Assembly (NCBI GenBank): GCA_000004985.1
Contig: GG738873.1
Reading direction: 5' to 3' (one strand)
Length of the DNA stretch: 64,000 nucleotides
From: Naegleria gruberi
Taxonomy: Eukaryota
The notes under the pieces were generated by a model. It had not been told where the DNA came from, did not search any database, and saw nothing but the letters and a program-made list of their open reading frames with translations. Within the stretch, counting starts at the first letter, position 1, and each line of letters opens with the position of its first letter. Position numbers and translations under genes: made by a program. Positions 93 to 45,604 of the stretch are shown piece after piece.

Positions 93-3000
93 TTATTTGA
101 ATAATTGAACAGTTGTCATTTCTCTGGTGGCTTGAACTTGCTTGATAATTCTAAATTCCTCTGTCAAAACAAATCTAGAATAGGTATCCATCAAATTGTA
201 AACAATATCCGTCATTAGATCCATAATAACCTCATTGGTGGCAGTCTTTAACTCGGCAACTTCGCTTCCATTGAGAGTATTAATGTTAGTATTGAGAAGA
301 GTATTGTGGAGAATCAAGTACTTTCTTCTCGTGATTGAATTGATATTGACAGACATTTCAGAAGAGGAATCAATGTGAGTTTTGAAAAGTTCATCCATCT
401 CTGTAACAACCCTGTCCCATTCCCCAATATTCGCATTTGAAGGAGAAATGACATCTGAAAAATCTTGCTTGAATTTTTCCAAACGAATCCAAATAATATA
501 ATTCTCCAAACTCATCTCAGTTTTGGTGTATTGACGGAATAATTTCAACAAGTACTTGTTTTGTTTGAGAGTCAAAACCTCAAATTTTTCATCAAACTCT
601 TGGAAGGCATTGGCTTGCTTTTTAGTGAACCATCCTCCCTTAGTAAATTCAGTCTTGAGAGCCCAAACAACAACAAATCCACCAAATGCAATAATCAAAC
701 AAATAGTCATTAAAGTTTCAAACAAGAATATAACACTATCCATCATGTCAACTATGTCGTTATTGGTAGAGTCGCCAGAGAATCTCAAACTCAAAGTTGA
801 AAAACCAACCAAGTAAGAAACTATAAAGAAAAGCATTGCTGCCAAATAAAAGATAACCTCCGTTCTGAACATTAGTACATCATTTGAAATGAATGTTTTG
901 AAAATGGATCCTAGTAATCTACCTCCTTTTGCAAGCTCCTGAGAAAAATTATTCTTGACGAGTGCTTGTTGGGAATTAGCAGTTGAAGAATCGATTACTA
1001 ATGAATTCATTTCCTCAGCAATATCAACAACTTCATCTGACATTTGTTTGTTTGACTTTTCGAGAACTAGATCAGTAACATAAATAGCAATAATCACCAT
1101 AGTCATTATTATCAACAAGATGAAAATAGATACCGTTGAAGCAGTTGAGAATTGAGCAGTGGTAAGTGAGCTATCTCCTCTTAAAATAACAAAAATGGAA
1201 AAGTAGATGAGAAAAAGTACTCCAGTAATTATGCTAGTAACGACAAGGACAGTCTGCTTTTTCAAAATATTCAGATACTTGACCATGGAATCCTTCTTGT
1301 TTGTTTCTATTGCTTTCATCATCCACTCATAAAAATACCTGTGAACTAGATATCTGAGTGACATTATCATGTAACACCAAATAGCAGCAGCTCTCATCGA
1401 TGTAGAAATGACAGTGCAAATAGAAACCATTAAATCCAATCTCAATGAAGGGAAATATGAGTAATGGAGCAGGATTGATTTGGAAAATATTCCAACAGCT
1501 AAATTTTCAATAAACAGAGAGGCAAGAGCCAAATGTGGGGTAATGTATCTGGACTTGACAGGTTGTTTCTTCCTTAATATAATTAACAACGCAAATATTA
1601 TGCCAATAACTACAAGAAATATGGAAGAAATGGCAATATTAGCAGTGGAGAGAGAATCATGAATACTCCTATCATTCCTCTTATAGGGAGCTTCTGAGAA
1701 ATCGATAAATGCTGAGAACCTTGTTGTGTGATCACAATAGCATGTCACCGTTCCATTACTGTATGAGGTACTACAACCGTTTTGAAGCCATTTCATTTCA
1801 GTTTCATTCCAATATCTACAGACATAGGTCTTGACAATCTCTGGGTTCGAAGAGTTACTGTTAAGTGTGGAATTGATTAAGGTTTCATTGATAGTCCCCT
1901 CATCAATGGTAAAAGTTAGGGTGATATTCTCAGATAGATTGTTGAGTGGAACATAGGTACCACTTACTAGGGTCTTGAATTGTAAAATTTTGGCACCAGG
2001 AAAAGAAATAGATTGATCAGTGAAAAACTGTTCAGGAGAGGATTCAAATCGAACAATGCCAAAACTAGTAGCAGAAGGTCCCAACGCAGCACCAATAGTA
2101 GAGGGAATAGCCACACTGTGAGAGGCATCAATAGGGCTACTTCCTCTATTCTCATCTAAAACAACGAGTACTACAAAGTTTTTCGTTTCAACTTTGACTG
2201 GTTCTTTTTTTCCCTCATTCTTATTGGAGATTGCAATAGCAGAGAGTGAGCTATCAATGGCCTTTTGCATTGTTTTCAATTCGAGTGACAATTCCACAAG
2301 GTTAGAGGCAATTAGTAATAAATTAGTGGAAATATTGTTGATGATGATGGTAGCCGAATGTAATTTTTTCAAAGTGTCTGAGAAATCATTCACTGTTTTG
2401 GAAATAGCTTCCTTGCCAGCTTCTGTGAGATAGTTAGTATAGACAGAGTCGGTAATAACCAATAGAGTTTGGGTTAAAAAGATACTCTGTTCAGTGGTAA
2501 TGTTTGAGGTCTTGTTTGTGAGGGTACTAGCTATAACCTCAATCAGTTCTGTCTTGTTGGTTACATTTTGTAGATTGTTAGCAATTTGATTAATAGATCC
2601 AATATCTAGCTCTTTAATCCTACTTGGATTATCCGTTACTTGTTTTAGAGAGAAAACTGATATTGACCTTGATTGAGAACTATTACCAACAATGATATCA
2701 TAGTTTCTATCAATAATTGTGGCTTCAATTGAATATTCTCCAACAGTTAGAAGTGGCAATTTCCAGGTTAGAGAGGTTGTGTTTTCAGAGTAGAAATAAT
2801 TGCCATTCCTAATTGTAAATGTTATAATCAAGGATTCCTTCTTATTGTAATAGGTTGTAAAATTAGAGTCTGCAAAGCTTAAAATAACATGAGTGTTGTT
2901 GGACTGAGTATCCAACATGGAGCTATCTGTCAATGAGAGGATTACGTTCTCACCAGCTATTAACAGTGCTCCACAATCAAAACCATCGCTATTAGAATTG

Positions 3001-3860
3001 CAACTACAAACATCTAAAATCTGGCATTGGCCCTTTCCTTGACAGACATCTGAGCTATTGGACAATATCGAAAAACAACTAGTCAACCCACAATTCGATC
3101 CAAAATGTCCTGCAGAACATGAACAAACATCTGGAAGTGTGCAATTACCTCTCCCAGAACAAACCAATGAGCTCTGATAATCCACAGAGAAACACGAATA
3201 GGATGAACAATTAGAATCATAATATTCACTCTGACAAGTACATGAACCATTGGCCGTACAATTTCCACGTCCAGAACAAACAAGAGGTGATTCCTGTGTC
3301 AATGAATCACAAACATACAAGTTATTGCACTTATTTCCATAATAACCAACACTACATGAACAATTGTTCTTGGAAATGCACTTTCCATGACCAGAACATA
3401 CAGAAGAACTTGATGAAGACTGTCCATAGCATTTGTAATTATCACCATCATCGTCGTCATCGCCTTCATCGTCATCACTCTCGTCTGATATCGAACGGGA
3501 GTGGTGGGTCTTGTCTCGATAAATTATGTTGTTGTTGATGGTGGGTATTTCTTGGCCCTGTACCAAAATTATCCAATTAGAATTGTGTTTGAGAAACCTT
3601 CTCGGTGATGGCAACACATTATTATTATTATTCGAAATTAATAGATTCCAATAATTACTATTCGAAAATACATCCGATGAAATTAGCAAAAAGCAAACAG
3701 ACACTATGAAAATTAGAACAACACATAAGTTCCTCCTCGCCGAATAATTCCAACATAATTTTAAAACTGATGATATGTAATTCTCCTTCCGCATACATGA
3801 TAATTTCCCCTCCAAAATACAACAAGCATCATCTTCCGTATTACTTCTAACAAGTAGCAT
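93..3860 (-). CDS. Adhesion-GPCR-like receptor: signal anchor, tenascin-type EGF repeats, GPS-like motif, 7TM, C-terminal RGS-like domain
   Basis: 1255-aa ORF; repeated Cys-rich EGF-like units (CSGHGKC..CSCSVGYYGNKC, CSGRGNCT..CTCQSEYYDSNC etc.); 'CRYWNETEMKWLQNGC..CYCDHTTRFSAF' GPS-type motif immediately before seven hydrophobic helices; C-terminal 'EMSLENYIIWIRLEKFK' resembles RGS core (SxENLxFWxAxExFK). Possible N-terminal intron not resolved. Confidence 0.6.
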   Translation of the reverse strand: MLLVRSNTEDDACCILEGKLSCMRKENYISSVLKLCWNYSARRNLCVVLIFIVSVCFLLISSDVFSNSNYWNLLISNNNNNVLPSPRRFLKHNSNWIILVQGQEIPTINNNIIYRDKTHHSRSISDESDDDEGDDDDDGDNYKCYGQSSSSSSVCSGHGKCISKNNCSCSVGYYGNKCNNLYVCDSLTQESPLVCSGRGNCTANGSCTCQSEYYDSNCSSYSCFSVDYQSSLVCSGRGNCTLPDVCSCSAGHFGSNCGLTSCFSILSNSSDVCQGKGQCQILDVCSCNSNSDGFDCGALLIAGENVILSLTDSSMLDTQSNNTHVILSFADSNFTTYYNKKESLIITFTIRNGNYFYSENTTSLTWKLPLLTVGEYSIEATIIDRNYDIIVGNSSQSRSISVFSLKQVTDNPSRIKELDIGSINQIANNLQNVTNKTELIEVIASTLTNKTSNITTEQSIFLTQTLLVITDSVYTNYLTEAGKEAISKTVNDFSDTLKKLHSATIIINNISTNLLLIASNLVELSLELKTMQKAIDSSLSAIAISNKNEGKKEPVKVETKNFVVLVVLDENRGSSPIDASHSVAIPSTIGAALGPSATSFGIVRFESSPEQFFTDQSISFPGAKILQFKTLVSGTYVPLNNLSENITLTFTIDEGTINETLINSTLNSNSSNPEIVKTYVCRYWNETEMKWLQNGCSTSYSNGTVTCYCDHTTRFSAFIDFSEAPYKRNDRSIHDSLSTANIAISSIFLVVIGIIFALLIILRKKQPVKSRYITPHLALASLFIENLAVGIFSKSILLHYSYFPSLRLDLMVSICTVISTSMRAAAIWCYMIMSLRYLVHRYFYEWMMKAIETNKKDSMVKYLNILKKQTVLVVTSIITGVLFLIYFSIFVILRGDSSLTTAQFSTASTVSIFILLIIMTMVIIAIYVTDLVLEKSNKQMSDEVVDIAEEMNSLVIDSSTANSQQALVKNNFSQELAKGGRLLGSIFKTFISNDVLMFRTEVIFYLAAMLFFIVSYLVGFSTLSLRFSGDSTNNDIVDMMDSVIFLFETLMTICLIIAFGGFVVVWALKTEFTKGGWFTKKQANAFQEFDEKFEVLTLKQNKYLLKLFRQYTKTEMSLENYIIWIRLEKFKQDFSDVISPSNANIGEWDRVVTEMDELFKTHIDSSSEMSVNINSITRRKYLILHNTLLNTNINTLNGSEVAELKTATNEVIMDLMTDIVYNLMDTYSRFVLTEEFRIIKQVQATREMTTVQLFK

Positions 3861-4148
3861 GATGATATTTTCTACTTGGGAATGCGTGATAATTATTTTG
3901 ATATTGTTTTTTTTAGTGAACTTGAAAAATTATGGAAAGGAAAACCAAGGATGGATCTAGAAAGCGTAGTGACATTGATAACTGCAGTAAATTGTTTCAT
4001 AACATGACTCTGATATTATTGATATTATTAATAGAATTTTGATATCTTGAAATTGGCCTATCTGATTTGAAATTTTCAAAACTTGCATTCTTGGTCTTGT
4101 ACATTATCTTCAACAGAATACAACTGTCATAAGTCAAACATCAAAAAA

Positions 4149-6291
4149 ATGGGCAATGAACAATCAGCACCAACTTCATCAGTACCAGCAGGTACAGAAT
4201 TAGCTACAATGCCAATTCGTCGTAACACAACTAACTATGCTTCCACAGCTGGCAGCTCATCCATCACAGCCTCCTCCACAAACAACAACCTTCTCAACAA
4301 TAGTACTACATCCAACAATCACGATCCTAACAATAATTCAAATAATCAAAATAATGGAAATTTCCTCTCCCTCCTCACCACCTCCCAAACATTAATTTAT
4401 GGCTATGCAAACAATGCCTCCCATCAAGTTGATCCATTCCGATCCAATGTAAAACAATTGGCCGATTTAATCAGACCAAATGCTCTTCAACTCGCTCCTC
4501 AGGAAGGCTTCTTTCATATCAGCGTCATGTTGGATGAAATCTGCAAGACTCACGAAGACATTTTAAATAACTATCGTAAATATTTGCCACTGGTAGAGTT
4601 TGCATTGAGCGGGAAAACTGAGAACAATGTATTGTTTGGATCAGGTGGTGGTGGGAGTATTTTTGGCGCCACTTCTTCATCTGCCTCCTCTTCAAAGGAA
4701 GCCTTTGAAAAATTGTTATTCTCTCTAAAAAATCACATTAACAATACGAGGAATGCTATTGAGGGATTGGTTGCTGCTTCGGAGAGTTATGAGAGGAGAA
4801 GTTTAAAGGCTAGTAATCAATCGTCGCATTCTCAGACTGCTTCAATGGTTAATTTGTTACCAACTTCGGGAATTACTTCGTTTGATTGGTCGACAATTGC
4901 TAATAAGAAGGTAAATTTTGATTTTAATTGATGATTAATAATTTTAATAATTATTCAATAATAATATATATATTATATTATACAAATTTAATACAAAATT
5001 TTGGAATTGTTATTGAATGGATAACATACAAATATTAAATTATATTGATTGGAATAATTATTTAATATTTTAGAAATATTTTCAAATTAAGGATGAAATT
5101 GAAATATTGCTAACATACCACTTGGAAGAATTACGTGGATATAAAGAAATTGTGGAAAAGGCTAATGCAAAAGGAGATACAGAAGTTAATGTAGCAACTA
5201 TAATTTCTGATGAATTTGCTGCAGAATTTTGGAAAACTAATTGTGGAGCTAATGTATTTTCTATTGATAAGGAAGCATTTATTGACTTGTTGGATGCTAA
5301 CTTTCAGGGTTGGTCTAAACGTGTAAAAAAAACATGGGTTGAGGAGATATCAGAGCTCATAGATCCAACCTGTGACAGTGTTGTTTCCATTGTAGATTTC
5401 AAAACTGTTTTACAATGGTTCGGTCCTTTCACAATTTCCTTCTTTACACCTATGGACAGTTTTTTAGCCCAGAAACATTTTTGGGGAAGTATTTCATCCA
5501 TGGAAGCTCAACACTTACTTGATTCCCAGGAGCCTGGTACTTTCCTCATTAGATTTTCTGAAATTGAAGCTGGTGCTTTTTCTATAAGTGTTGTAGAACA
5601 AGAGAGTGATGACAATTTAGGTCTCTCAGGTGGTGAATCTACCATTTTCAAGCAAACTTCTCACTTTATATTGAGAAGGAAAAAGGAAGACCAAAAATTC
5701 CTCTTTATTCTTTGTGAAAATGATACTGAATTCAAATGTGAAACTGTTGATCAATTAATCAAACAATATCGTTTGACATTTAAATATCCATTCACTGATG
5801 AAACTCAAAAATTAGAAGTTAAACAACAAGAGGACGAGTTGGACTTTTTCAATTTTATGAAATCAACAGCTGCTCTCAGTGCTCTTGACGATGATGAAGA
5901 AAACTCAAACTTTGTAAAATTCAGAGGAAGAATTGTTGACAAGTCCATTGCCAAGCAAAATGAAAAAGTTCCTCCAAACTCTACCAAAAAGACACCAACT
6001 TCAGCCACACTCAGCACTCCAAAACCATCTGGTCACAATAGAGTTCTCTCAACAGCTAGTAGTAGTGGAAATTCTTCTCCAGTACCAAATACTCCAACTA
6101 CCATTGCTGTAGCTTCACCGACAACCACTCCTTCTACCACTCTTCCATCTGATAAGAATATCACTACACCACAACCAGCAGCATCATCATCATCTGCAAC
6201 AGTTAGTAGTAGTGCCAATTCTACCACCAGTAGTAGTAGTACACCATCAATAGATGAAAATAATATTGCTCTTGAGGAAAAGAAGCAATAA
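4149..6291 (+). CDS. STAT-family protein (poly-Asn N-terminus, helical region, EF-hand-like linker, SH2 domain); 2 exons (4149..4910, ~5092..6291)
   Basis: SH2 signature 'FWGSISSMEAQHLLDSQEPGTFLIRFSE' (STAT-type GTFLLRFSE); EF-hand-like 'IDKEAFIDLL..VSIVDFKTVLQWF' just upstream as in the STAT linker; donor GTAAAT at 4911, acceptor AG at 5073 or 5091 (both in frame); MGNEQSAP start in A-rich context. Confidence 0.75.
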
Positions 6292-33527: not shown

Positions 33528-35429
33528 TTATTGGATTAAACATTTAGGTTTACCATTATTCGAAACTTGAGAATCCTGTAAAAGACAGCACTTTACAATC
33601 AATTCTTTCAATTCTTCAATTCCCACCATTTTCAATGAAGAAACTTCTGTAAATGATAAACATTTCAATTCTCTGGCTAGATTTTCTCCTTCCTCATACG
33701 AAACTATTCTTGGTTTTTCTTTCGAATAAAAATTTTCTCCTGGATTATAATTCCTCAAATCAGATTTTGTTCCCAACAGTAGAATTGGTGTTTTTGGTGA
33801 GTGAAGTCTTGTTTCCTCTACAAAAGTATCCTTAACTCGATGAAAGCTGTCTAAATTGTAGATACTGTACACTACAATGGTAAGATCTGGTGGAGGAGAG
33901 TAGGATAAATATCTAATTATTTCATAATCATATCCTCCAGCTGTATCTCTCATTTGGAGTGTGAATGTTTGATTTTTGAGAGTTACTGGAATTGGATGTT
34001 CACTTTCGAATACTGTTGGGATGTATTCTTGTGGAAATTCATTCATGGCTAGTACTATTTGCATTGAGGTTTTACCAACATTTGATGATCCAATTACGGT
34101 AATTCTAAATTCATGTAAATTATTTTCAGTTTCCTTGACAAGTTGTTGAATGTCTTGTTTTAAAATTTCCTGTTTTGGCTTGAATTGAAATTCAATGAGG
34201 GTTTTAATTCTTCCCAGTTCAATAATGTGATTTTTGGATTGTTGATAAAAAGTTCTTGAATGTAAAGCAAGATTGTAATAATTAACTCCACTACGTCGTG
34301 GGCTCACATTTTGTGATTTGCTTAACAAGAACTTCTTCCATAATTTGTCCTCAATGCTTAGTTGACTAAGTTGACAGTCTTTTCCAATCAATTGAACATT
34401 ATTGAGATCATGAACTGGTAAATATTCCAAAATCATTCTAAAAATGTCTTCGTTTAGCATTGATAACTTTCCATTATTTTCCTTTGCATTGATATTTGAG
34501 ATAGATTGTTGATATTTTCCTCCCCAGACAAAATAATAAACCACAAAGGTTAATTCGTGGGGTGTGTAAATGGTCAATGAATGGAAAACAGGTCCAAATT
34601 CAGAATTATTAAACACTCGAGAGAGAAAATGAAAGTTTTCTTCTCTCCACTCATTCTTCTCTGAGAGGTTTAAACTATGTAGAGTGGTAAAATCATGATT
34701 TGAATTACAACCACCAATCAAGAATAGCCTATCGTTTTCTATCCATGATTTGTGACCATATCTTGAAATATTTTGAGGAATTTTCTTGATTTTACAATTC
34801 AGATACTCAGATTCTGATAAATTTTCTAAATCAATTAGTAAAACGTCATTGATTGGAATATTTCCACTTTGTTTTCCACCTGAAATGATCAACAAATTAT
34901 TGTAAATCAGTGAGGAATGAAAGTATCTCCCCAAAATTTCATTATTTTTCCTATTTTTTAAAGACCGACATTTCCATTCGAAAGTTTTCAAATTTAATTC
35001 GAAAACTTGATTGGAAACAAATCCATCAGAATCATATCCACCAAATATAATCATGGAATCTTTGTAAATCTCAGCAGAATGTCCAAATCTGGGAGAAATA
35101 ACTTGATCATTCACAGTTGTTAGTTTCGTCCATTTTCCAACAGATTCCTTTGAATTAAATTCGAATTGCCAAACATCAGCTAGATATCCATTCGATTTAC
35201 CACCAAATAAAATCATTTTGTGATCATGGGAGATTGCAGAATGGAAATTTCTTGGAGATGGTTTTTCACCTTCCGATAAAATTATTGGAATGCAAGATTC
35301 TGATGAAATTTCATAAACTCTCAACTGATCAGAGTATTCGTTTTGATTGGCACTTTCGAGTAATCCACCAAAAATTAAAATATATTCATTGTTGATATTG
35401 ACGGATGTGTGACCGATGAGTTTTGACAT
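33528..35429 (-). CDS. Kelch-repeat + F-box-like + Rho-family small GTPase fusion protein with CAAX box
   Basis: N-terminal Kelch blades ('IFGGL','ILFGGKSNGYLADVWQF','IIFGGYDSDG','LIGGC'); 'LNEDIFRMILEYLPVHDLNNVQLIGKDCQ..LWKKF' F-box-like; C-terminal GTPase 'VIGSSNVGKTS','IPTVFE','DTAGGYDYEIIRYLSY','LLGTKSDLR', ends ..PKCLIQ (CaaX). Confidence 0.75.
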   Translation of the reverse strand: MSKLIGHTSVNINNEYILIFGGLLESANQNEYSDQLRVYEISSESCIPIILSEGEKPSPRNFHSAISHDHKMILFGGKSNGYLADVWQFEFNSKESVGKWTKLTTVNDQVISPRFGHSAEIYKDSMIIFGGYDSDGFVSNQVFELNLKTFEWKCRSLKNRKNNEILGRYFHSSLIYNNLLIISGGKQSGNIPINDVLLIDLENLSESEYLNCKIKKIPQNISRYGHKSWIENDRLFLIGGCNSNHDFTTLHSLNLSEKNEWREENFHFLSRVFNNSEFGPVFHSLTIYTPHELTFVVYYFVWGGKYQQSISNINAKENNGKLSMLNEDIFRMILEYLPVHDLNNVQLIGKDCQLSQLSIEDKLWKKFLLSKSQNVSPRRSGVNYYNLALHSRTFYQQSKNHIIELGRIKTLIEFQFKPKQEILKQDIQQLVKETENNLHEFRITVIGSSNVGKTSMQIVLAMNEFPQEYIPTVFESEHPIPVTLKNQTFTLQMRDTAGGYDYEIIRYLSYSPPPDLTIVVYSIYNLDSFHRVKDTFVEETRLHSPKTPILLLGTKSDLRNYNPGENFYSKEKPRIVSYEEGENLARELKCLSFTEVSSLKMVGIEELKELIVKCCLLQDSQVSNNGKPKCLIQ

Positions 35430-36412: not shown

Positions 36413-39400
36413 CTAGAAATTTTGAATGTCAGCACTTGTTGGTCTCATACTTGGTTCCTTTGAGACCATAGTCACAATAAAATTGCAAAGCTTCTCAGAG
36501 TAACCTCTTGATATCAAGTGTTCCATTGTTCTGTCCAACACCACTTCTTCCTTATCGTATAATAATTGAGCTGTAATGTTTAAATCTAAGGAATCATTTG
36601 CCATGGCCTGAATGAGTGAAACTCCAAGTGAAAATATATCAGCACTATAACTGTATTTTCTAGAAAAGACCTCAGGTGCCATATATTGCAATGTTCCTGC
36701 AACTGAATTTTGAGTTTCTCCAGTTTCCTTTGCCTCTCCATAATCACCAATAACCACTTGGATTTCATCCAATTCACGGTCCAATTTACTATAGAAAATA
36801 TTACGTGGTTTGATATCTCTGTGAACAATTAGTTTCTCTTGGTGAAGATAGTTCAAACCATCTCCAAGTTGTTTCATGATGGAGATGATCATCTTCTCAG
36901 AGACAATCTTTCCATCTTGTTTCAAATCTTTCAAGGCATGTTCCAAGTCGCCTTCATAAAATTTCATTACAATACAAATAGATTGAATAATCTGTGCTTC
37001 AAAGAATTCATAAACTTCAACCAGATTTGCATGTCTGTATGAAAGTGTTTTGGAACATTCATCAATAATTTTAGAATGTCTGCTTTGATCATAACTAATA
37101 GTCTTGATGGCAACTGGCATGTCATTCTTTTTAGAATCCAAACAGAGATAACATTTACCAAATGCACCCTGACCAATAACTTGTTGAATCTTGTATCTAT
37201 CTTTGAGCAAAGAATGATCTGTGTTTTGAGTAGAAGAAGTAGTAGTTGTGTTAGTATTGGAAGTATTGGAAGACAATTGGTACAAGGAATTGTTAAAGGT
37301 ATCGCTTGGGAAATCTGAAGTCACTGATGTACTATTATTGGCTGTTTGAGTGACATTTTCATCAATGGTTGTTATCATTTCAATTGGTTTTTCCTTAGTA
37401 ACCAGTGGTTTGCTTTTCTTCTTCTTTAATTTCACAATGAGACAGATGGTGACAATGATTGCAAGCAATATTAACAATACCAATAATGTTAAACCCACAA
37501 CCAATCCAACAATCAATCCAATGTTAGAATTAACTGGAGTAGTCACTTGTCCATTCTTGGATGCAAGTGGAGAGACATAGGTAGGAGGAACAATTCTATT
37601 CTCACAACTCAATCCACTATATCCTTCCAGACATGAACAACCATTACTTGATGTACATGTTCCATTTCCACTACAATTTTTCACGGCATCACAAGAGAAG
37701 AGGGAACAATCGAGACTTCCCTTCCATCCACTAGTGCATGAGCATGTATTATTACTCACACAGAAACCATGTCCTGAACAGGCATTCAATGTTTCACATG
37801 AGAAGAGAGAGCAATCAGAACTTCCTCTCCAGCCAGAATAACACGAACAATTGTTCATTACACAATCTCCATGTCCACTACATTGATTCTGTAGGTCACA
37901 ACCAAAAGAGATTGCTCTCACCTTTCCATTACTTGTGTCAGCAATGAAAATTTTAGATTCATCAGCAGAGAGAGCTACTCCCATTGGTCCATAAAATTGA
38001 GTTTCCAAAGGGTGCAAATTCTCTCCATTGTATCCATACAGTGGTGCAGTACCAGCAATGGTTATCAAAGTTCCATTCTTAAATAATTTCCTTATGGCAT
38101 GGTTTTGGGAATCAGAAATCAATAGTTCATCATTGGATAAAATGGCAAGACCAGCAGGATATCTCAACATTGAATTAACACCACTCAAATTCTCCCCACT
38201 ATATCCATCCACCCCAGTTCCTGCAATGGTAATGAGGGTTCCATCATTGAGAATTTTTCTCACTCGATGGCCTTCATACTCTGAAAAAATAACTTCATTA
38301 TTAGAGGTCAGTACAATTCCATATGGATTATTAATATTGGCACTAGTTGCTAATAGCCCATCTCCATTGTAGGTAGAAGTACCGGTACCAGCTACAGTAA
38401 TGATGGTCTGATTGAAAAACACTTTTCTAATTCGATGATTTCCAGAATCGGTAATGTACAAATCTCCATTTGTGGATCTGGCAATTCCTTTTGGTAAATT
38501 TAAATGAGCACTAGTAGCAGGAATGTTATCAGCATTGTATCCAGTAGTTCCAGATCCAGCTTTTGTTATTACAATTCCACTAGAAGATATGAGATATTTC
38601 ACAGTTGACGAATCAACAAAATAGTACTCCCCTACATTGGGCACGAGTGGAGATCTGGGTGAAATATAACTTGGAGTAATGGTTGTGATAATTCCACCGA
38701 GTGAAATCTTTCTCAATCTATAATTTCTTGTGTCGGCCACAATAACCTCATTATTTGGAGCGACAGCAACCGATTCTGGACCAAAGAGTTTTGCCTTCAC
38801 TGCCTCAATATTATCACCATTGTAGCCGAGATTGGAACCTGTTCCAGCAACAGTAGTGATGATATTGTTTGTGTTAATCTTTCTGACTCTGTAATTTCCA
38901 CCATCGGAAATGAAAATCTCCCCACTCGAGGATATAGCAATGCCTCTTGTGACTCTGAACATGGCATTGGATGCCAATTGATTGTCTCCAGCATAGCCAT
39001 ATGATGATCCAGCTATTAATGTTGCAACTCCATTCGTTTGAATCATGTACACTTTATCTGAAACAGTGACATAGAGAGCACCAGTGATTGGAGATATTGC
39101 CATTCCATTGACTGTATTAGTCTGGCCAGAGAGTTCAAAAGTAGTGAACATGACTACACTGGTGCCATTATTGAAAACCTTTCTAATCTTGTCATATTCT
39201 CCAATGTAAACTTCTCCACTATTAGAGATGGCAATGGAAGTGGGGAAGTTTAACTGTGCATTAGTTGCATCCTGTACCACAGTGGATGTATCTGTTCCAC
39301 CTCCAGCGAATGTTCTAATGATACCATCCGTATACGAAACTACACGAATTTTGTTATTTGAGGTTTCTGCAATATATAAATTATTATTCACAGGAGAGAT

Positions 39401-39961
39401 GACAATTCCACCTGGTGTATTCAATAGTGCATTGGTAGCGACTCCATCATCACCGATACTCCCTGGTACACCAACTTGACCAGCGTATGTGCTAATCAAA
39501 TTACTAGATAATATGACCTTTCGAATAACATGACTATTCGTATCAGACAAGTACATGACATCACTATTCTGAAAAGCAAGTGCACTAGGATAATTGAAAC
39601 GAGCCAAAGTTGCTATAGTTGTCGTGACAGAACCAGGAATACCCACACCAGCAATTGTTTTAATTTTACCACTACTTGCCACTACTTGTCTCACTCGACA
39701 ATTTATCTTGTCAACTATGAAAATGTCACCATTGTTACTTGGAGAGAGTGCAAGACCATCAGGTATGGCAATTTCTGCCTTGGTAGCATCAATGTTATCA
39801 CCATTGTAACCATTGGGATAACTACCTGCTATGGTTTTTACATGGTATAAAGATTGACCGTGGACAATTGGTTGGGCAGCAAGAAACACCAAGTGAAACA
39901 AAAACAACAATGGTAGCAAGAATGTTGAGCTATTAGTGTTGTTGAGTTTCAATTTGTCCAT
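36413..39961 (-). CDS. Receptor-like protein kinase: signal peptide, multiple NHL repeats, tenascin-type EGF repeats, single TM, cytoplasmic kinase domain
   Basis: NHL-like blades ending in ..RVRKI/..RIRKV/..RLRKI (x8 or more); 'CSGHGDCVMNNCSCYSGWRGSSDCS..CSGHGFC..CSGNGTC' EGF units; TM 'IGLIVGLVVGLTLLVLLILLAIIVTICLIV'; kinase motifs 'IGQGAFGKCY','VAIKTI','HRDIKPRNIF','GDYGEA','YMAPE','DIFSLG'. Confidence 0.85.
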   Translation of the reverse strand: MDKLKLNNTNSSTFLLPLLFLFHLVFLAAQPIVHGQSLYHVKTIAGSYPNGYNGDNIDATKAEIAIPDGLALSPSNNGDIFIVDKINCRVRQVVASSGKIKTIAGVGIPGSVTTTIATLARFNYPSALAFQNSDVMYLSDTNSHVIRKVILSSNLISTYAGQVGVPGSIGDDGVATNALLNTPGGIVISPVNNNLYIAETSNNKIRVVSYTDGIIRTFAGGGTDTSTVVQDATNAQLNFPTSIAISNSGEVYIGEYDKIRKVFNNGTSVVMFTTFELSGQTNTVNGMAISPITGALYVTVSDKVYMIQTNGVATLIAGSSYGYAGDNQLASNAMFRVTRGIAISSSGEIFISDGGNYRVRKINTNNIITTVAGTGSNLGYNGDNIEAVKAKLFGPESVAVAPNNEVIVADTRNYRLRKISLGGIITTITPSYISPRSPLVPNVGEYYFVDSSTVKYLISSSGIVITKAGSGTTGYNADNIPATSAHLNLPKGIARSTNGDLYITDSGNHRIRKVFFNQTIITVAGTGTSTYNGDGLLATSANINNPYGIVLTSNNEVIFSEYEGHRVRKILNDGTLITIAGTGVDGYSGENLSGVNSMLRYPAGLAILSNDELLISDSQNHAIRKLFKNGTLITIAGTAPLYGYNGENLHPLETQFYGPMGVALSADESKIFIADTSNGKVRAISFGCDLQNQCSGHGDCVMNNCSCYSGWRGSSDCSLFSCETLNACSGHGFCVSNNTCSCTSGWKGSLDCSLFSCDAVKNCSGNGTCTSSNGCSCLEGYSGLSCENRIVPPTYVSPLASKNGQVTTPVNSNIGLIVGLVVGLTLLVLLILLAIIVTICLIVKLKKKKSKPLVTKEKPIEMITTIDENVTQTANNSTSVTSDFPSDTFNNSLYQLSSNTSNTNTTTTSSTQNTDHSLLKDRYKIQQVIGQGAFGKCYLCLDSKKNDMPVAIKTISYDQSRHSKIIDECSKTLSYRHANLVEVYEFFEAQIIQSICIVMKFYEGDLEHALKDLKQDGKIVSEKMIISIMKQLGDGLNYLHQEKLIVHRDIKPRNIFYSKLDRELDEIQVVIGDYGEAKETGETQNSVAGTLQYMAPEVFSRKYSYSADIFSLGVSLIQAMANDSLDLNITAQLLYDKEEVVLDRTMEHLISRGYSEKLCNFIVTMVSKEPSMRPTSADIQNF

Positions 39962-41659: not shown

Positions 41660-44600
41660 TTGTTAAAAAAAATGATAATTGACCAACACCAAACTGCACC
41701 TCGTTGGATTTGCAACAAGTGCCAAGGATTCATCGATAGGGGAACAATCCGATACGTCAATACTGATGAAAAGGACTTTGACTTGTGTGAAAATTGTTAT
41801 CACTGGTGTTGGGAACAGTATCAGAAGAGAAAGCAACATAATACAAATTCACAATTTAATTCTCTTGATGATGATGGTGATGATGATGTTGGGAATAACA
41901 CGGAAAATAACAAAATATTGGACATGTTCTGTAGGGATTTGGAATTTATTGTACCAACCAAGTATCACTATTCTGAAATGAAAGGACGAATTAAAAGTTC
42001 CGATCGGTTTAATAGTTCTCTGTTTAGATCATTTGTTGAATATTCACTCAATCCTTGCTTTGGATTGTTGAAACAAGATGATGGTCCCTATCATTTTCAA
42101 ACCTATGAACAGGTATTTCATTTGATTTGTTGCATCAGTATTGGATTAGATCAGATTTTGAAACCATTAATACGAGTGGGAAAGAGACAATTTGTATCAA
42201 TATGTGGAAAGAATAATTTGTATTGGTATTTGAGTGATTATGCTTGTTTCTTTAGGGGGTTTGTGATTGCCCCCATTCATTTTGCTCAATCATTTGAGGA
42301 GACGAAATATTGCATTGAACTGACAGAGAGTCAAGTTGCTATTTGTACTGAAGAAATGTTAGATTTATTCATTAGAATTACCAAAGAGTTGGATATTGTG
42401 AAATATATTATTGTAATGGATGATACAGAATCAAAATCAAGAGGAAAATTTACCAATCAAAGAGGAACACAAGAAATTGAAATTATTCCAATGAATGACA
42501 TTATTGACGCTGGAAAATCAATATTGTGTGAATATTTGAATGAAAAGAACAAACCAAGAACGAATCCATATCCAGAACATTATGAAAATCACGAGACAAT
42601 CCTTGTGACTCCACCTCAGGACAAGTACGATCCTAGAAAGATGTGGATTGGAGTGGAACATGAAGAATTTATTCTAAATAGGTTGGATAATGAGGAGGAT
42701 CTAGTGACTCTTGTTTTCACAAGTGGATCCACTGGTATTCCAAAAGGAATCATGATGAGTGATAGAGCTTTGAGAAAGGAAGTACTCAGTTTAAGGATAA
42801 AAGATCCTAAAGTTCGTTTCTCTTTTTGTCCACTCGCTCACATGAGTGATAGAAAATACACCCTATTGGCCATGTGTAATGGAGCCAGAGTTGGAATATT
42901 TACTAGAGAATTTGTTCACATCTTTGAGGATATTCAAAACTGCAAACCAGTTGTAATTGCATCCACTCCAAGATTATTCAATGTGCTGTACGATGAGTTT
43001 AAGAAAGTAGTCGAATTGGAAAGAATTCGTTGGCTTTCTTCCACTGAAACTGGGAAACCAAAAACTGAGAAGGAACTTGAGGAAAGAACCATGCTTGACT
43101 TTCAATACATGCTTGGTGGGCGTGTTCAATCAATTATTCTTGGAGGGGCTTCTTCTAGCCCACAATTAAGAGAATTTTTGGCAAAATGTTTCCAGTGTAA
43201 AGTAACAGATGGTTTTGGAATGTCTGAAGCTGGAGGAATTATGAATAACAATCGACTCAACACTAATGTCGAATACAAGTTGATTGATGTTCCTGAATTG
43301 AGCTATTTCACAACAGACAAACCTTATCCGAGAGGAGAACTTTGTGTCAAGACAAATTACATGTTTATTGGATATTATAAGAATGAAGAGCTCACTAATA
43401 ATGCACTGGATGAAAATGGATGGTTACACACCAACGATATTGTTGAAGAATTAGGACCAAATCAAATCAGAATTATTGACAGACTGAAGAATATTTTCAA
43501 ATTGAGTCAGGGTGAATTCATAGCACCTGCCAAGATTGAAGATGCTCTCACTACCTCTAAATTTATTTTCCAAGCTTTTATTTATGGCAATGTGACAAAG
43601 AGCTACTTGGTTGGTGTCATTGTTCCCAACAAAACAGTTTTAAAACAGTTTGCAATTAAGGAAGGAATTATCAAACCATCAGCCGATCACCATCTCCTAA
43701 ATGAAGAAGAGAAAGAAGTATTGGCAAATAATGAGCTGATCAAGAAAGCTCTATGTGAAGAGATTGAGAAAGTTGCTGTAAATTGTTCACTTTTGTCTTA
43801 CGAAGTTCCAAAAGATTTTATCATTGAATTTGAACCTTTTAGTGAGAAAAATGATTTACTAACCTCCTCTATGAAGGTTAAGAGATTTGGATGTGAAATG
43901 AAATATAAGGAACAATTGGAGACACTCTATGAGCATGTAGATAGAAATTACAAGAGAAAGTTGGACGAAGATTTGATTCGTGAATTGTTAGTGAACTCCT
44001 CATCAGGCTCAGAGGAATCTGCAGATGGAAATATGAAAATTATTGACAGTCTTCATGCAGTTAAATTTTCTGGAATTATGAAACAAAAATTCAACATTGA
44101 CATTCCACTTTCATTGATATTTTCTCAAACGGATAGGAATGTGGAAAGTGTAGTGAGTAGAGTTTCAAACTTTGTCACAAAAGGCCAAACTAATCAGCAA
44201 TCGTATGACTGGAAAAAGGATATTCTCTTACCACAAGAACTTCTCGATGAAATTACTGACATTACTTCAAAAGGAAAGCAGAAATTCAATAAGATATCAA
44301 ACCTAAAGAAGGGTATTCTTCTGACTGGCTCAACTGGATTTTTAGGTGCCTTCCTATTGAGAGATTTATTGGAGAATTTACAAACAGCTCAGGAGCATGT
44401 GAAAATCTATTGTTTGATAAGAGAAAAGAATCAGCAACACAGTTTATTCACTAGATTGAAGAAACATCTTGTAAAATTCAATATCTGGAAAGATACTTAT
44501 GAAAGGAGAATATCTGTCATTAGGGGAAATTTACAGGATGAGAATTTAGGTCTCTCTCATGAGGAATTCAACAAATTGGCTGGAGATGTTGACATTATTT

Positions 44601-45604
44601 ACCACAATGGAGCATATGTCAACTCAGTCATGTCGTACTCTCAATTATTCTCTTCCAATGCTGGATCTACGTACTATTTATTGAAACTTGCTTGCCTGTC
44701 ATCAAAATTGAATATCCAAAATGATGGAGATTCCTTAACACCAATTATTCTCGTTTCAACTGTTGGTGTTGTACAATCTGCGTTGTCAGAATTTGATCTA
44801 CCAACCAGAAAATCTCAAGTTAATGATAACCCTCAGGAAACTAAAGAAATGATTAGCAATCATGTCGATCAAGTCATTGGTCAACTGAAACCAATTATTG
44901 AAAAAGCAGCTGGGTATAACAGCACCAAATTTATTGCAGAACAATACATTCAACAAGCAAGGTTATTGGGATATCCCGGTGCCATCTTTAGACCAGGAAT
45001 GATTGGAAGTGATACTGAGAATGGAGTTTCGAATTTAGAGGACTGGGTCAATAGGTTGATTCTGGGATGTTTCGAATTGGGTTGCTTCCCACAAACCAAA
45101 AAATCTCTCAATGTCATTCCTGTGGATATTATTTCAAGAGTGATTGTGGAATTGACACAGAATGAGAATGTATTCATTGGTACTTTACAATCCAATCCAA
45201 ACTATTTGATTTATGAGGTGGCTAATCTTTCTCAATATGAAATTCAAATTGATAATTTACTTGGCATCGCTGCCACAACTCTAGCGAAATTGCTAAACAA
45301 GAAACCAATGGAAATGGTTAGCTACACTAAGTGGAAACAAATACTGAATGAGAGAACATCAACCGAAGAAAACGAAATGTTATTGATTTTGAAAACTCTC
45401 TTCAAATCAGATACGGAATTTCTAAAAAGCATAAACAAACTCCAAGACAACCACATTCAGAAAATCATTGAAGTTCTTTCTAGATCAGAAAGCATACAGT
45501 GCAGAGAATTAGTTCCTAACAAAAATCTAAACCAAAACTATCTTGAAAAACAAGCTCTATACCTAGTCCAGAGTCTCAAGAAGAAATTGGGCGAAAATTT
45601 ATAA
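41660..45604 (+). CDS. ZZ-type zinc finger + long-chain acyl-CoA-synthetase-type adenylation domain + phosphopantetheine carrier + NAD(P)-dependent thioester reductase (carboxylic-acid-reductase-like A-T-R enzyme)
   Basis: 'WICNKCQGFIDRGTIRYVNTDEKDFDLCENCYHWCWEQY' ZZ finger; AMP-binding core 'TSGSTGIPKG', 'GWLHTNDIVEE', 'IIDRLKNIFKLSQGEFIAPAKIE' (ACSL-like); PCP-like 'IDSLHAVKFSGIMKQ'; R domain 'LLTGSTGFLGAFLL', 'YHNGAYVN', 'GYNSTKFIAE' (YxxxK); single 1314-aa exon. Confidence 0.8.
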   Translation: MLKKMIIDQHQTAPRWICNKCQGFIDRGTIRYVNTDEKDFDLCENCYHWCWEQYQKRKQHNTNSQFNSLDDDGDDDVGNNTENNKILDMFCRDLEFIVPTKYHYSEMKGRIKSSDRFNSSLFRSFVEYSLNPCFGLLKQDDGPYHFQTYEQVFHLICCISIGLDQILKPLIRVGKRQFVSICGKNNLYWYLSDYACFFRGFVIAPIHFAQSFEETKYCIELTESQVAICTEEMLDLFIRITKELDIVKYIIVMDDTESKSRGKFTNQRGTQEIEIIPMNDIIDAGKSILCEYLNEKNKPRTNPYPEHYENHETILVTPPQDKYDPRKMWIGVEHEEFILNRLDNEEDLVTLVFTSGSTGIPKGIMMSDRALRKEVLSLRIKDPKVRFSFCPLAHMSDRKYTLLAMCNGARVGIFTREFVHIFEDIQNCKPVVIASTPRLFNVLYDEFKKVVELERIRWLSSTETGKPKTEKELEERTMLDFQYMLGGRVQSIILGGASSSPQLREFLAKCFQCKVTDGFGMSEAGGIMNNNRLNTNVEYKLIDVPELSYFTTDKPYPRGELCVKTNYMFIGYYKNEELTNNALDENGWLHTNDIVEELGPNQIRIIDRLKNIFKLSQGEFIAPAKIEDALTTSKFIFQAFIYGNVTKSYLVGVIVPNKTVLKQFAIKEGIIKPSADHHLLNEEEKEVLANNELIKKALCEEIEKVAVNCSLLSYEVPKDFIIEFEPFSEKNDLLTSSMKVKRFGCEMKYKEQLETLYEHVDRNYKRKLDEDLIRELLVNSSSGSEESADGNMKIIDSLHAVKFSGIMKQKFNIDIPLSLIFSQTDRNVESVVSRVSNFVTKGQTNQQSYDWKKDILLPQELLDEITDITSKGKQKFNKISNLKKGILLTGSTGFLGAFLLRDLLENLQTAQEHVKIYCLIREKNQQHSLFTRLKKHLVKFNIWKDTYERRISVIRGNLQDENLGLSHEEFNKLAGDVDIIYHNGAYVNSVMSYSQLFSSNAGSTYYLLKLACLSSKLNIQNDGDSLTPIILVSTVGVVQSALSEFDLPTRKSQVNDNPQETKEMISNHVDQVIGQLKPIIEKAAGYNSTKFIAEQYIQQARLLGYPGAIFRPGMIGSDTENGVSNLEDWVNRLILGCFELGCFPQTKKSLNVIPVDIISRVIVELTQNENVFIGTLQSNPNYLIYEVANLSQYEIQIDNLLGIAATTLAKLLNKKPMEMVSYTKWKQILNERTSTEENEMLLILKTLFKSDTEFLKSINKLQDNHIQKIIEVLSRSESIQCRELVPNKNLNQNYLEKQALYLVQSLKKKLGENL

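Follow-up and report, generated by a model that had tools for sequence, protein, structure and literature searches.

A GAIN-7TM-RGS protein of Naegleria gruberi, a probable receptor-type GTPase-activating protein from the Naegleria family of 7TM RGS proteins

Within a 64,000-nucleotide stretch of Naegleria gruberi DNA (NCBI GenBank assembly GCA_000004985.1, contig GG738873.1; hereafter, the window), we analyzed a gene at positions 93 to 3860 on the minus strand, the strand that carries all of the gene features given below. The gene is an open reading frame (ORF) of 1255 aa whose span includes the stop codon (93-95), with one frame open throughout 1255 codons; because the frame is uninterrupted, we treat it as a single exon, as modeled. 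Based on domain identities, topology, family membership, and the conservation of catalytic and contact residues, all of which were observed here, we conclude that the encoded protein is probably a receptor-type GTPase-activating protein (GAP) of the Naegleria “7TM RGS” family (7TM, seven transmembrane helices). The ORF matches the N. gruberi “predicted protein” P0001 (NCBI/UniProt; encoded on a 462-kb contig) with 100% identity over its full length. The name GAIN-7TM-RGS receptor-GAP now fits this so far unannotated member of a known, published Naegleria family. The precomputed Pfam list for P0001 contains EGF families alone, without RGS and GPS; threshold-based Pfam annotation of the full-length protein overlooks both of these domains.

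The C-terminal tail (aa 1089 to 1254; positions 99 to 596) is an RGS domain, as identified from profile, AlphaFold2 (AF2), Foldseek, and conservation evidence. A preliminary description of this DNA had called the tail RGS-like from a peptide at aa 1093 to 1131, which lies within the match to Pfam PF00615 (aa 1098 to 1231; profile positions 5 to 109 of 117; 23.1 bits; E=1e-4). This score is borderline, and the case for a real RGS tail therefore comes from a paralog, the family profile, the predicted structure, and the contact residues, which together bore the earlier assignment out. The paralog, N. gruberi P0002 (2047 aa), is colinear with aa 639 to 1243 (25% identity; E=6e-54), with a tail that reaches 37.9 bits against PF00615. 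The same Pfam profile was matched individually by 16/16 members of our family alignment (E<0.01; best, 2.5e-12). When compared with all PDB sequences, the 16-member family profile retrieved RGS5 first (E=1.3e-13), followed by RGS16, RGS3, RGS10, RGS8, RGS2, and RGS4 (1e-12 to 1e-9), and an Entamoeba RGS-RhoGEF was also among the matches. The tail is not predicted to be disordered, a point that the preliminary description had marked for checking: the AF2 model of aa 1076 to 1255 (model 2), built on a 27-sequence alignment, has an all-helical RGS fold (mean pLDDT, 92.7; pTM, 0.84) with 8 DSSP helices, alpha8 and alpha9 being merged. The top 44 Foldseek matches of this model in the PDB were all RGS domains, with the R4 type first (TMt, 0.6 to 0.73; probability, 1.0).

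Alignment to RGS5 and RGS16 placed the G-alpha-contact residues of the tail at E1115, S1117, E1119, N1120, N1172, D1225, T1226, R1229, and F1230, within the segments E1115-M-S1117-L-E1119-N1120, N1172, and D1225-T-Y-S-R1229-F1230. We take E1119, N1120, N1172, D1225, and R1229 to be the equivalents of RGS4 E87, N88, N128, D163, and R167. In RGS4, contact with the G-alpha switch regions is made by E-x-S-x-E-N, which precedes helix 4; by Asn128, within the loop joining alpha5 and alpha6; and by D-S-Y-x-R-F, where alpha7 meets alpha8. Conservation was calculated here and below over 76 full-length relatives, each standing for one cluster at ≤50% identity. Among these, E1115, E1119, N1120, N1222, and R1229 are invariant (100%), and conservation is 99% for N1172 and D1225.

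With a GPS-7TM-RGS profile, we searched 1.84 billion representatives exhaustively by HMMER. The search yielded 806 proteins with E≤1e-3 and 86 with E≤1e-30, most of them matching across the whole module. The species among the matches were N. gruberi, N. fowleri, and N. lovaniensis; the rest were environmental (metagenome) sequences, including the closest relative, P0026 (44% identical across the module). Within N. fowleri, the closest relative is FDP41_001840 (P0169), which shares 33% identity over aa 286 to 1255 and is without the EGF N-terminus. We found no second family member within the window. The comparison of orthologs that had been proposed earlier yielded >76 colinear relatives, with both GPS and RGS present in 16/16 aligned members.

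The N. fowleri branch of this family has been described: 28 seven-TM proteins carry a C-terminal RGS domain, a number of them with GPS motifs and several with EGF repeats and lectin domains, an arrangement called “reminiscent of the adhesion GPCRs” (GPCR, G protein-coupled receptor) (Bosch, Jeck & Siderovski, J Biol Chem 2022, PMC9283941). In isolation, the RGS domains from Nf 7TM RGS2, 3, and 4 were selective in speeding GTP hydrolysis on Nf G-alpha2/3/5/7, targets that include two self-activating subunits, and the effect was lost with a switch-1 G-to-S mutation (PMC9283941). The protein studied here belongs to the same family as the published set because P0022, which matches the GPS-7TM-RGS profile over positions 23 to 682 (E=3e-171), carries both Nf 7TM RGS1 cloning-primer peptides at the expected spacing of 180 aa. 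Judging from these primers, P0022 is likely Nf 7TM RGS1 itself. By architecture and homology, our protein is a member of the Naegleria “7TM RGS” family: the layout of an EGF (and/or lectin) ectodomain, a GPS, seven TM helices, and a C-terminal RGS is the same as in N. fowleri, but our protein comes from another species and another subfamily. FDP41_001840 is not among the four tested N. fowleri proteins (Nf 7TM RGS1-4). The preliminary description was right to read an adhesion-GPCR-like ectodomain, a 7TM bundle, and an RGS domain in one chain, an architecture already known from the published N. fowleri proteins (PMC9283941).

The ectodomain is predicted to hold a complete GAIN domain. As defined from the crystal structures of latrophilin-1 and BAI3, a GAIN domain consists of a helical subdomain A and a subdomain B of 13 strands and 2 helices, whose last five strands form the GPS (Arac 2012, PMC3321182). 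In the AF2 model of aa 298 to 1255 (model 1; mean pLDDT, 77.4), the region corresponding to subdomain B (aa 555 to 723; positions 1692 to 2198; model residues 258 to 426) has exactly 13 beta-strands and 2 short helices. It is preceded by a helical bundle, recognized from AF2 and Foldseek as GAIN subdomain A (aa 405 to 549; positions 2214 to 2648; model residues 108 to 252; pLDDT, 80 to 93). In this predicted model, the fold of aa 405 to 723 matches the full GAIN definition (PMC3321182). The top Foldseek match of model 1 was inactive CD97/ADGRE5 (8ikj; E=1.1e-9; 544 aligned columns), and GAIN matches included BAI3 (4dlo; E=2e-8) and BAI2 (8oek; E=6e-8). The 16-member family profile likewise matched the GAIN domains of ADGRF1, ADGRL3, ADGRD1, ADGRG1, and others among PDB sequences (1e-8 to 1e-6).

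Within subdomain B lies the GPS motif (aa 681 to 718; positions 1707 to 1820), with C681, W684, W691, C696, C707, C709, H711, T712, T713, F715, and F718; the sequence of aa 681 to 715 is CRYWNETEMKWLQNGCSTSYSNGTVTCYCDHTTRF. The GPS was not listed in the whole-protein Pfam scan and was recovered after trimming of the Cys-rich EGF part, when PF01825 matched above its cutoff (28.9 bits versus 22.5; E=1.7e-6). This result upheld the earlier recognition of a GPS-like motif directly before seven TM helices, which begin ∼10 residues further on, and the same profile was matched by 16/16 aligned family members. The motif residues over aa 681 to 718 are 96 to 100% conserved, and the four Cys, the two Trp, H711, and T713 are 99 to 100% conserved. 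The last strand (aa 714 to 723) is followed by the TM1 helix from aa 728 in the AF2 model, and a position directly before the first TM helix is a GAIN hallmark (PMC3321182).

At the end of the GPS, a putative autoproteolysis site lies at H711-T712 / T713 (positions 1722 to 1730), where relatives keep the H in 76/76 cases, the T at -1 in 73/76, and the T at +1 in 75/76. The strand that follows is the last GAIN strand (aa 713 to 725, TRFSAFIDFSEAP; positions 1686 to 1724; model residues 417 to 426) and adjoins TM1. We regard this strand as Stachel-like because of its family logo and its alignment to a GPS+7tm_2 protein. After the putative scissile bond the logo reads T-x-F-[SA]-[AT]-F-[ILV]-[EQ]-[YF], represented here by TRFSAFIDF, and hhalign aligned TRFSAFIDF with TNFAVLMD of the GPS+7tm_2 protein.

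The seven TM helices claimed in the preliminary description were recovered in the AF2 model at aa 728 to 1068 (positions 657 to 1679): TM1, 728-761; TM2, 774-799; TM3, 806-835 (modeled as 806-835+); TM4, 869-895; TM5, 901-930; TM6, 998-1026; and TM7, 1032-1068. The third cytoplasmic loop is 67 aa long, and the outer loops are very short (5 to 6 aa). The predicted cytoplasmic segments contain 5, 8, 6, and 4 Lys+Arg and the three outer loops 0, 0, and 0, and 23/25 N-x-S/T sequons lie upstream of TM1. Because of this charge distribution and sequon placement, we assign an N-out/C-in topology with a cytoplasmic RGS domain.

The bundle has a GPCR fold that is not recognizably class B, and the comparison to latrophilin made earlier was not supported for this part of the protein. 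The 7tm_2 profile (PF00002) had no match in the protein (E up to 10) or in the 16 family members (E<0.01). The family profile matched no solved GPCR over TM2 to TM7 among PDB sequences at E<1, and the nearest neighbors of the 7TM region by profile-profile or structural comparison were not adhesion/secretin 7TMs. A conserved disulfide between TM3 and the second extracellular loop (ECL2) is a defining feature used for adhesion GPCR class B2. It is absent here: ECL2 is DSSLT (5 aa) and lacks Cys, and the 7TM region has no conserved Cys. Adhesion-GPCR alignments that reach into TM1 were rejected as evidence of 7TM homology, since proteins with a GPS, 1 TM, and a kinase, and REJ proteins, align likewise. 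Family-conserved positions include Q-P-V-x-S-R after TM1 (P767, S770, R771), P775, R836-[Y/F] where TM3 ends on the inner side, D930, L996-x-F998-R999-x-E1001 where TM6 begins on the inner side, and, in TM7, F1059-G-G. A GAIN domain on a 7TM bundle not recognizably of class B bears on how GAIN domains were joined to 7TM receptors in evolution.

Upstream of the GAIN domain, the ectodomain carries four teneurin/tenascin-type EGF repeats of six Cys each (aa 144 to 296; positions 2973 to 3431). The 24 Cys form four units of C-x10-C-x5-C-x5-C-x-C-x8-C, and Pfam matched EGF_2 (E=7.9e-11; 4 stretches) and EGF_Teneurin (E=5e-6), in agreement with the EGF-type Cys repeats noted earlier from the letters of the sequence. 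Between the repeats and the GAIN domain is a tentative Ig/PKD-like beta-sandwich (aa 298 to 405; positions 2646 to 2969), suggested by AF2 strands at model residues 11 to 107 (pLDDT, 64 to 80) and by a Foldseek match to the AAVR PKD domain (7wqp_R; TMt, 0.51). Near the N-terminus, a hydrophobic segment at aa 46 to 65 (VVLIFIVSVCFLLISSDVF; positions 3666 to 3725; Kyte-Doolittle peak, 2.68) would serve as a signal peptide or else as a signal anchor. It is the only N-terminal hydrophobic stretch and has ∼45 residues upstream of it, or 22 if the start is Met23. Were it an uncleaved anchor, the N-terminal fragment would stay tethered to the membrane after any cleavage at the GPS.

We propose that the four EGF repeats, the beta-sandwich, and the GAIN domain would form an extracellular input side, with the seven-helix bundle placing at the cytoplasmic side of the plasma membrane an RGS domain that looks catalytically competent. 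There, the RGS domain would speed GTP hydrolysis on at least one of the many Naegleria G-alpha subunits and would so keep signaling off. Ligand or force acting on the EGF/GAIN region, perhaps once the protein has cleaved itself at H711-T / T713 and TRFSAFIDF is exposed, may alter the conformation of the 7TM bundle or the localization of the protein, which would in turn alter the amount of GAP activity that reaches G-alpha. GAP activity of this tail is likely by analogy with the related N. fowleri tails. Autoproteolysis, Stachel engagement, and coupling of the ectodomain to the GAP would follow the examples of adhesion GPCRs and AtRGS1.

Several observations weigh against the receptor-type GAP proposed here. 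The RGS score of the protein itself falls just under the Pfam gathering threshold of 23.9, S1170 stands where 89% of relatives have E, and the tail shares only ∼25 to 28% identity with the subfamilies to which the tested N. fowleri proteins are related. For the Naegleria 7TM RGS proteins, the effect of ectodomain state on GAP activity was left undetermined by the authors (PMC9283941). Thr precedes the scissile bond here, versus Leu in adhesion GPCRs. Because the L837A substitution impaired cleavage in latrophilin-1 (PMC3321182), this difference makes self-cleavage uncertain; by analogy, cleavage at H711-T712 / T713 is plausible.

A more specific form of the proposal, which we offer tentatively and consider possible rather than likely, is an “inverse adhesion GPCR,” in which a GAIN/Stachel switch would be wired to a GPCR-fold bundle outside class B with GAP activity as its output. 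Part of this idea is that the GAIN/Stachel module is known elsewhere only as a class B2 activator. When a force or ligand acts on the EGF ectodomain, the brake on a partly self-activating G-alpha would be lifted or applied, with the R836/E1001 pair and the H-T / T site as the presumed working parts. If true, tethered-agonist or mechanical control of 7TM proteins would be older or more portable than class B2. Alternatively, the protein could be a bifunctional, “self-limiting” receptor, as the preliminary description had imagined: a true GPCR that acts as a guanine nucleotide exchange factor (GEF) via its Stachel and whose attached RGS domain stops the same G-alpha, giving brief pulses. The GPCR fold and the conserved Arg(TM3)/Glu(TM6) pair R836/E1001 leave room for such a receptor, but none of the 7TM RGS proteins has been reported to act as a GEF, and the role described for AtRGS1 is that of a GAP (PMC9283941). 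Conservation of the Stachel-like strand is explained equally well by a structural role as the last GAIN strand. We therefore consider a bifunctional receptor unlikely.

It is far less probable still that the RGS tail is a noncatalytic scaffold of the GRK/axin RGS-homology type, with signaling by another route. The subthreshold single-sequence Pfam score is compatible with a scaffold. So are the insertions that, compared with R4 RGS proteins, the tail has in its alpha4-alpha5 and alpha6-alpha7 regions, and the presence of axin RGS-homology and SNX13 RGS domains low in the list of fold matches (ranks 45 to 49). The low score may be due to the insertions of this subfamily between helices 4-5 and 6-7. 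Against a scaffold, catalytic RGS domains of the R4 type (RGS8, RGS1, RGS16, RGS4, and RGS5) give the best matches in both structure and sequence. In addition, every tested G-alpha-contact residue is kept and near-invariant across the family, and the related N. fowleri tails are active GAPs. A chance ORF, pseudogene, or misread resemblance in place of a real receptor, for which the initial borderline RGS score was the sole support, is already refuted by 1255 open codons identical to a database gene model, by colinear homology to >76 proteins, by profile and fold matches, and by the confidence of both AF2 models.

The receptor-type GAP reading sets the protein among several known systems. Outside Naegleria, 7TM-RGS proteins occur in plants (AtRGS1), Trichomonas, and many other lineages (PMC9283941). 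Arabidopsis AtRGS1 and other plant, Trichomonas, and protist 7TM-RGS proteins also combine seven TM helices with a C-terminal RGS domain as a membrane GAP. AtRGS1 is regulated by an extracellular cue, glucose, and its likeness to this protein is one of layout. AtRGS1 is not known to have EGF repeats, a GAIN/GPS, or a large ectodomain. Metazoan adhesion GPCRs of class B2 (ADGRE5/CD97, ADGRL/latrophilins, and ADGRB/BAI) share an adhesive EGF ectodomain, a GAIN domain with a 4-Cys/2-Trp GPS and an H-x-T site directly before TM1, and a Stachel-like strand of the form T-x-F-[SA]-x-[FL]-[IM]; the 7TM bundle described here differs from theirs in having neither a 7tm_2 match nor the TM3-ECL2 disulfide. 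The class C orphans GPR158 and GPR179 recruit RGS7-Gbeta5 noncovalently. In GPR158, the RGS domain is a separate polypeptide and no GAIN is involved, and the structural likeness is that of a generic GPCR fold only. Polycystin-1/PKD1-like and GPS-kinase proteins have a GAIN/GPS before membrane parts that are not GPCRs, with other cytoplasmic parts and no RGS.

Distant environmental GPS proteins with the canonical H-L-T were also encountered (P0130, P0140, P0147, P0155, and P0132). P0130, P0140, and P0147 combine a GPS with 1 TM and a kinase, P0155 has REJ+GPS, and in this set the GPS also occurs before a true 7tm_2 bundle. Consistent with these distant matches and with earlier work (PMC3321182), the GAIN/GPS is a portable juxtamembrane module.

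Whereas the 2022 N. fowleri study reported GPS motifs (PMC9283941), the present analysis adds a full predicted GAIN fold that includes a conserved Stachel-like strand, family-wide constraint on the H/T site and the G-alpha-contact residues, and a 7TM class, namely, a GPCR fold that is not recognizably class B. The interest that remains lies in how a GAIN/Stachel module would control a GAP and in the joining of a GAIN domain to a 7TM bundle not recognizably of class B. N. gruberi, the nonpathogenic laboratory sister species of the brain-eating N. fowleri, would offer a practical system for the question raised in 2022 of ectodomain control over the attached GAP.

Other ORFs in the window also encode multidomain proteins. 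The ORF at 36413-39961 (minus strand; 1182 aa) has NHL/teneurin-NHL repeats, teneurin-type EGF repeats, and a C-terminal protein kinase, a receptor-kinase layout whose EGF type is common to the GAIN-7TM-RGS ectodomain. At 5107-6291 (plus strand), a Cbl_N2 EF-hand-like domain (E=5e-6) is followed by SH2 (E=9e-11), forming a Cbl-type tyrosine-kinase-binding module in a heterolobosean amoeba; the ORF at 4083-4931 (plus strand), which has no Pfam match, is perhaps an upstream exon of it. A Kelch beta-propeller is fused with a Ras/Roc-type small GTPase domain in the 633-aa ORF at 33528-35429 (minus strand). The ORF at 41660-45604 (plus strand; 1314 aa) combines AMP-binding and NAD_binding_4 (“male sterility”) domains in a carboxylate/aminoadipate-reductase-like layout.

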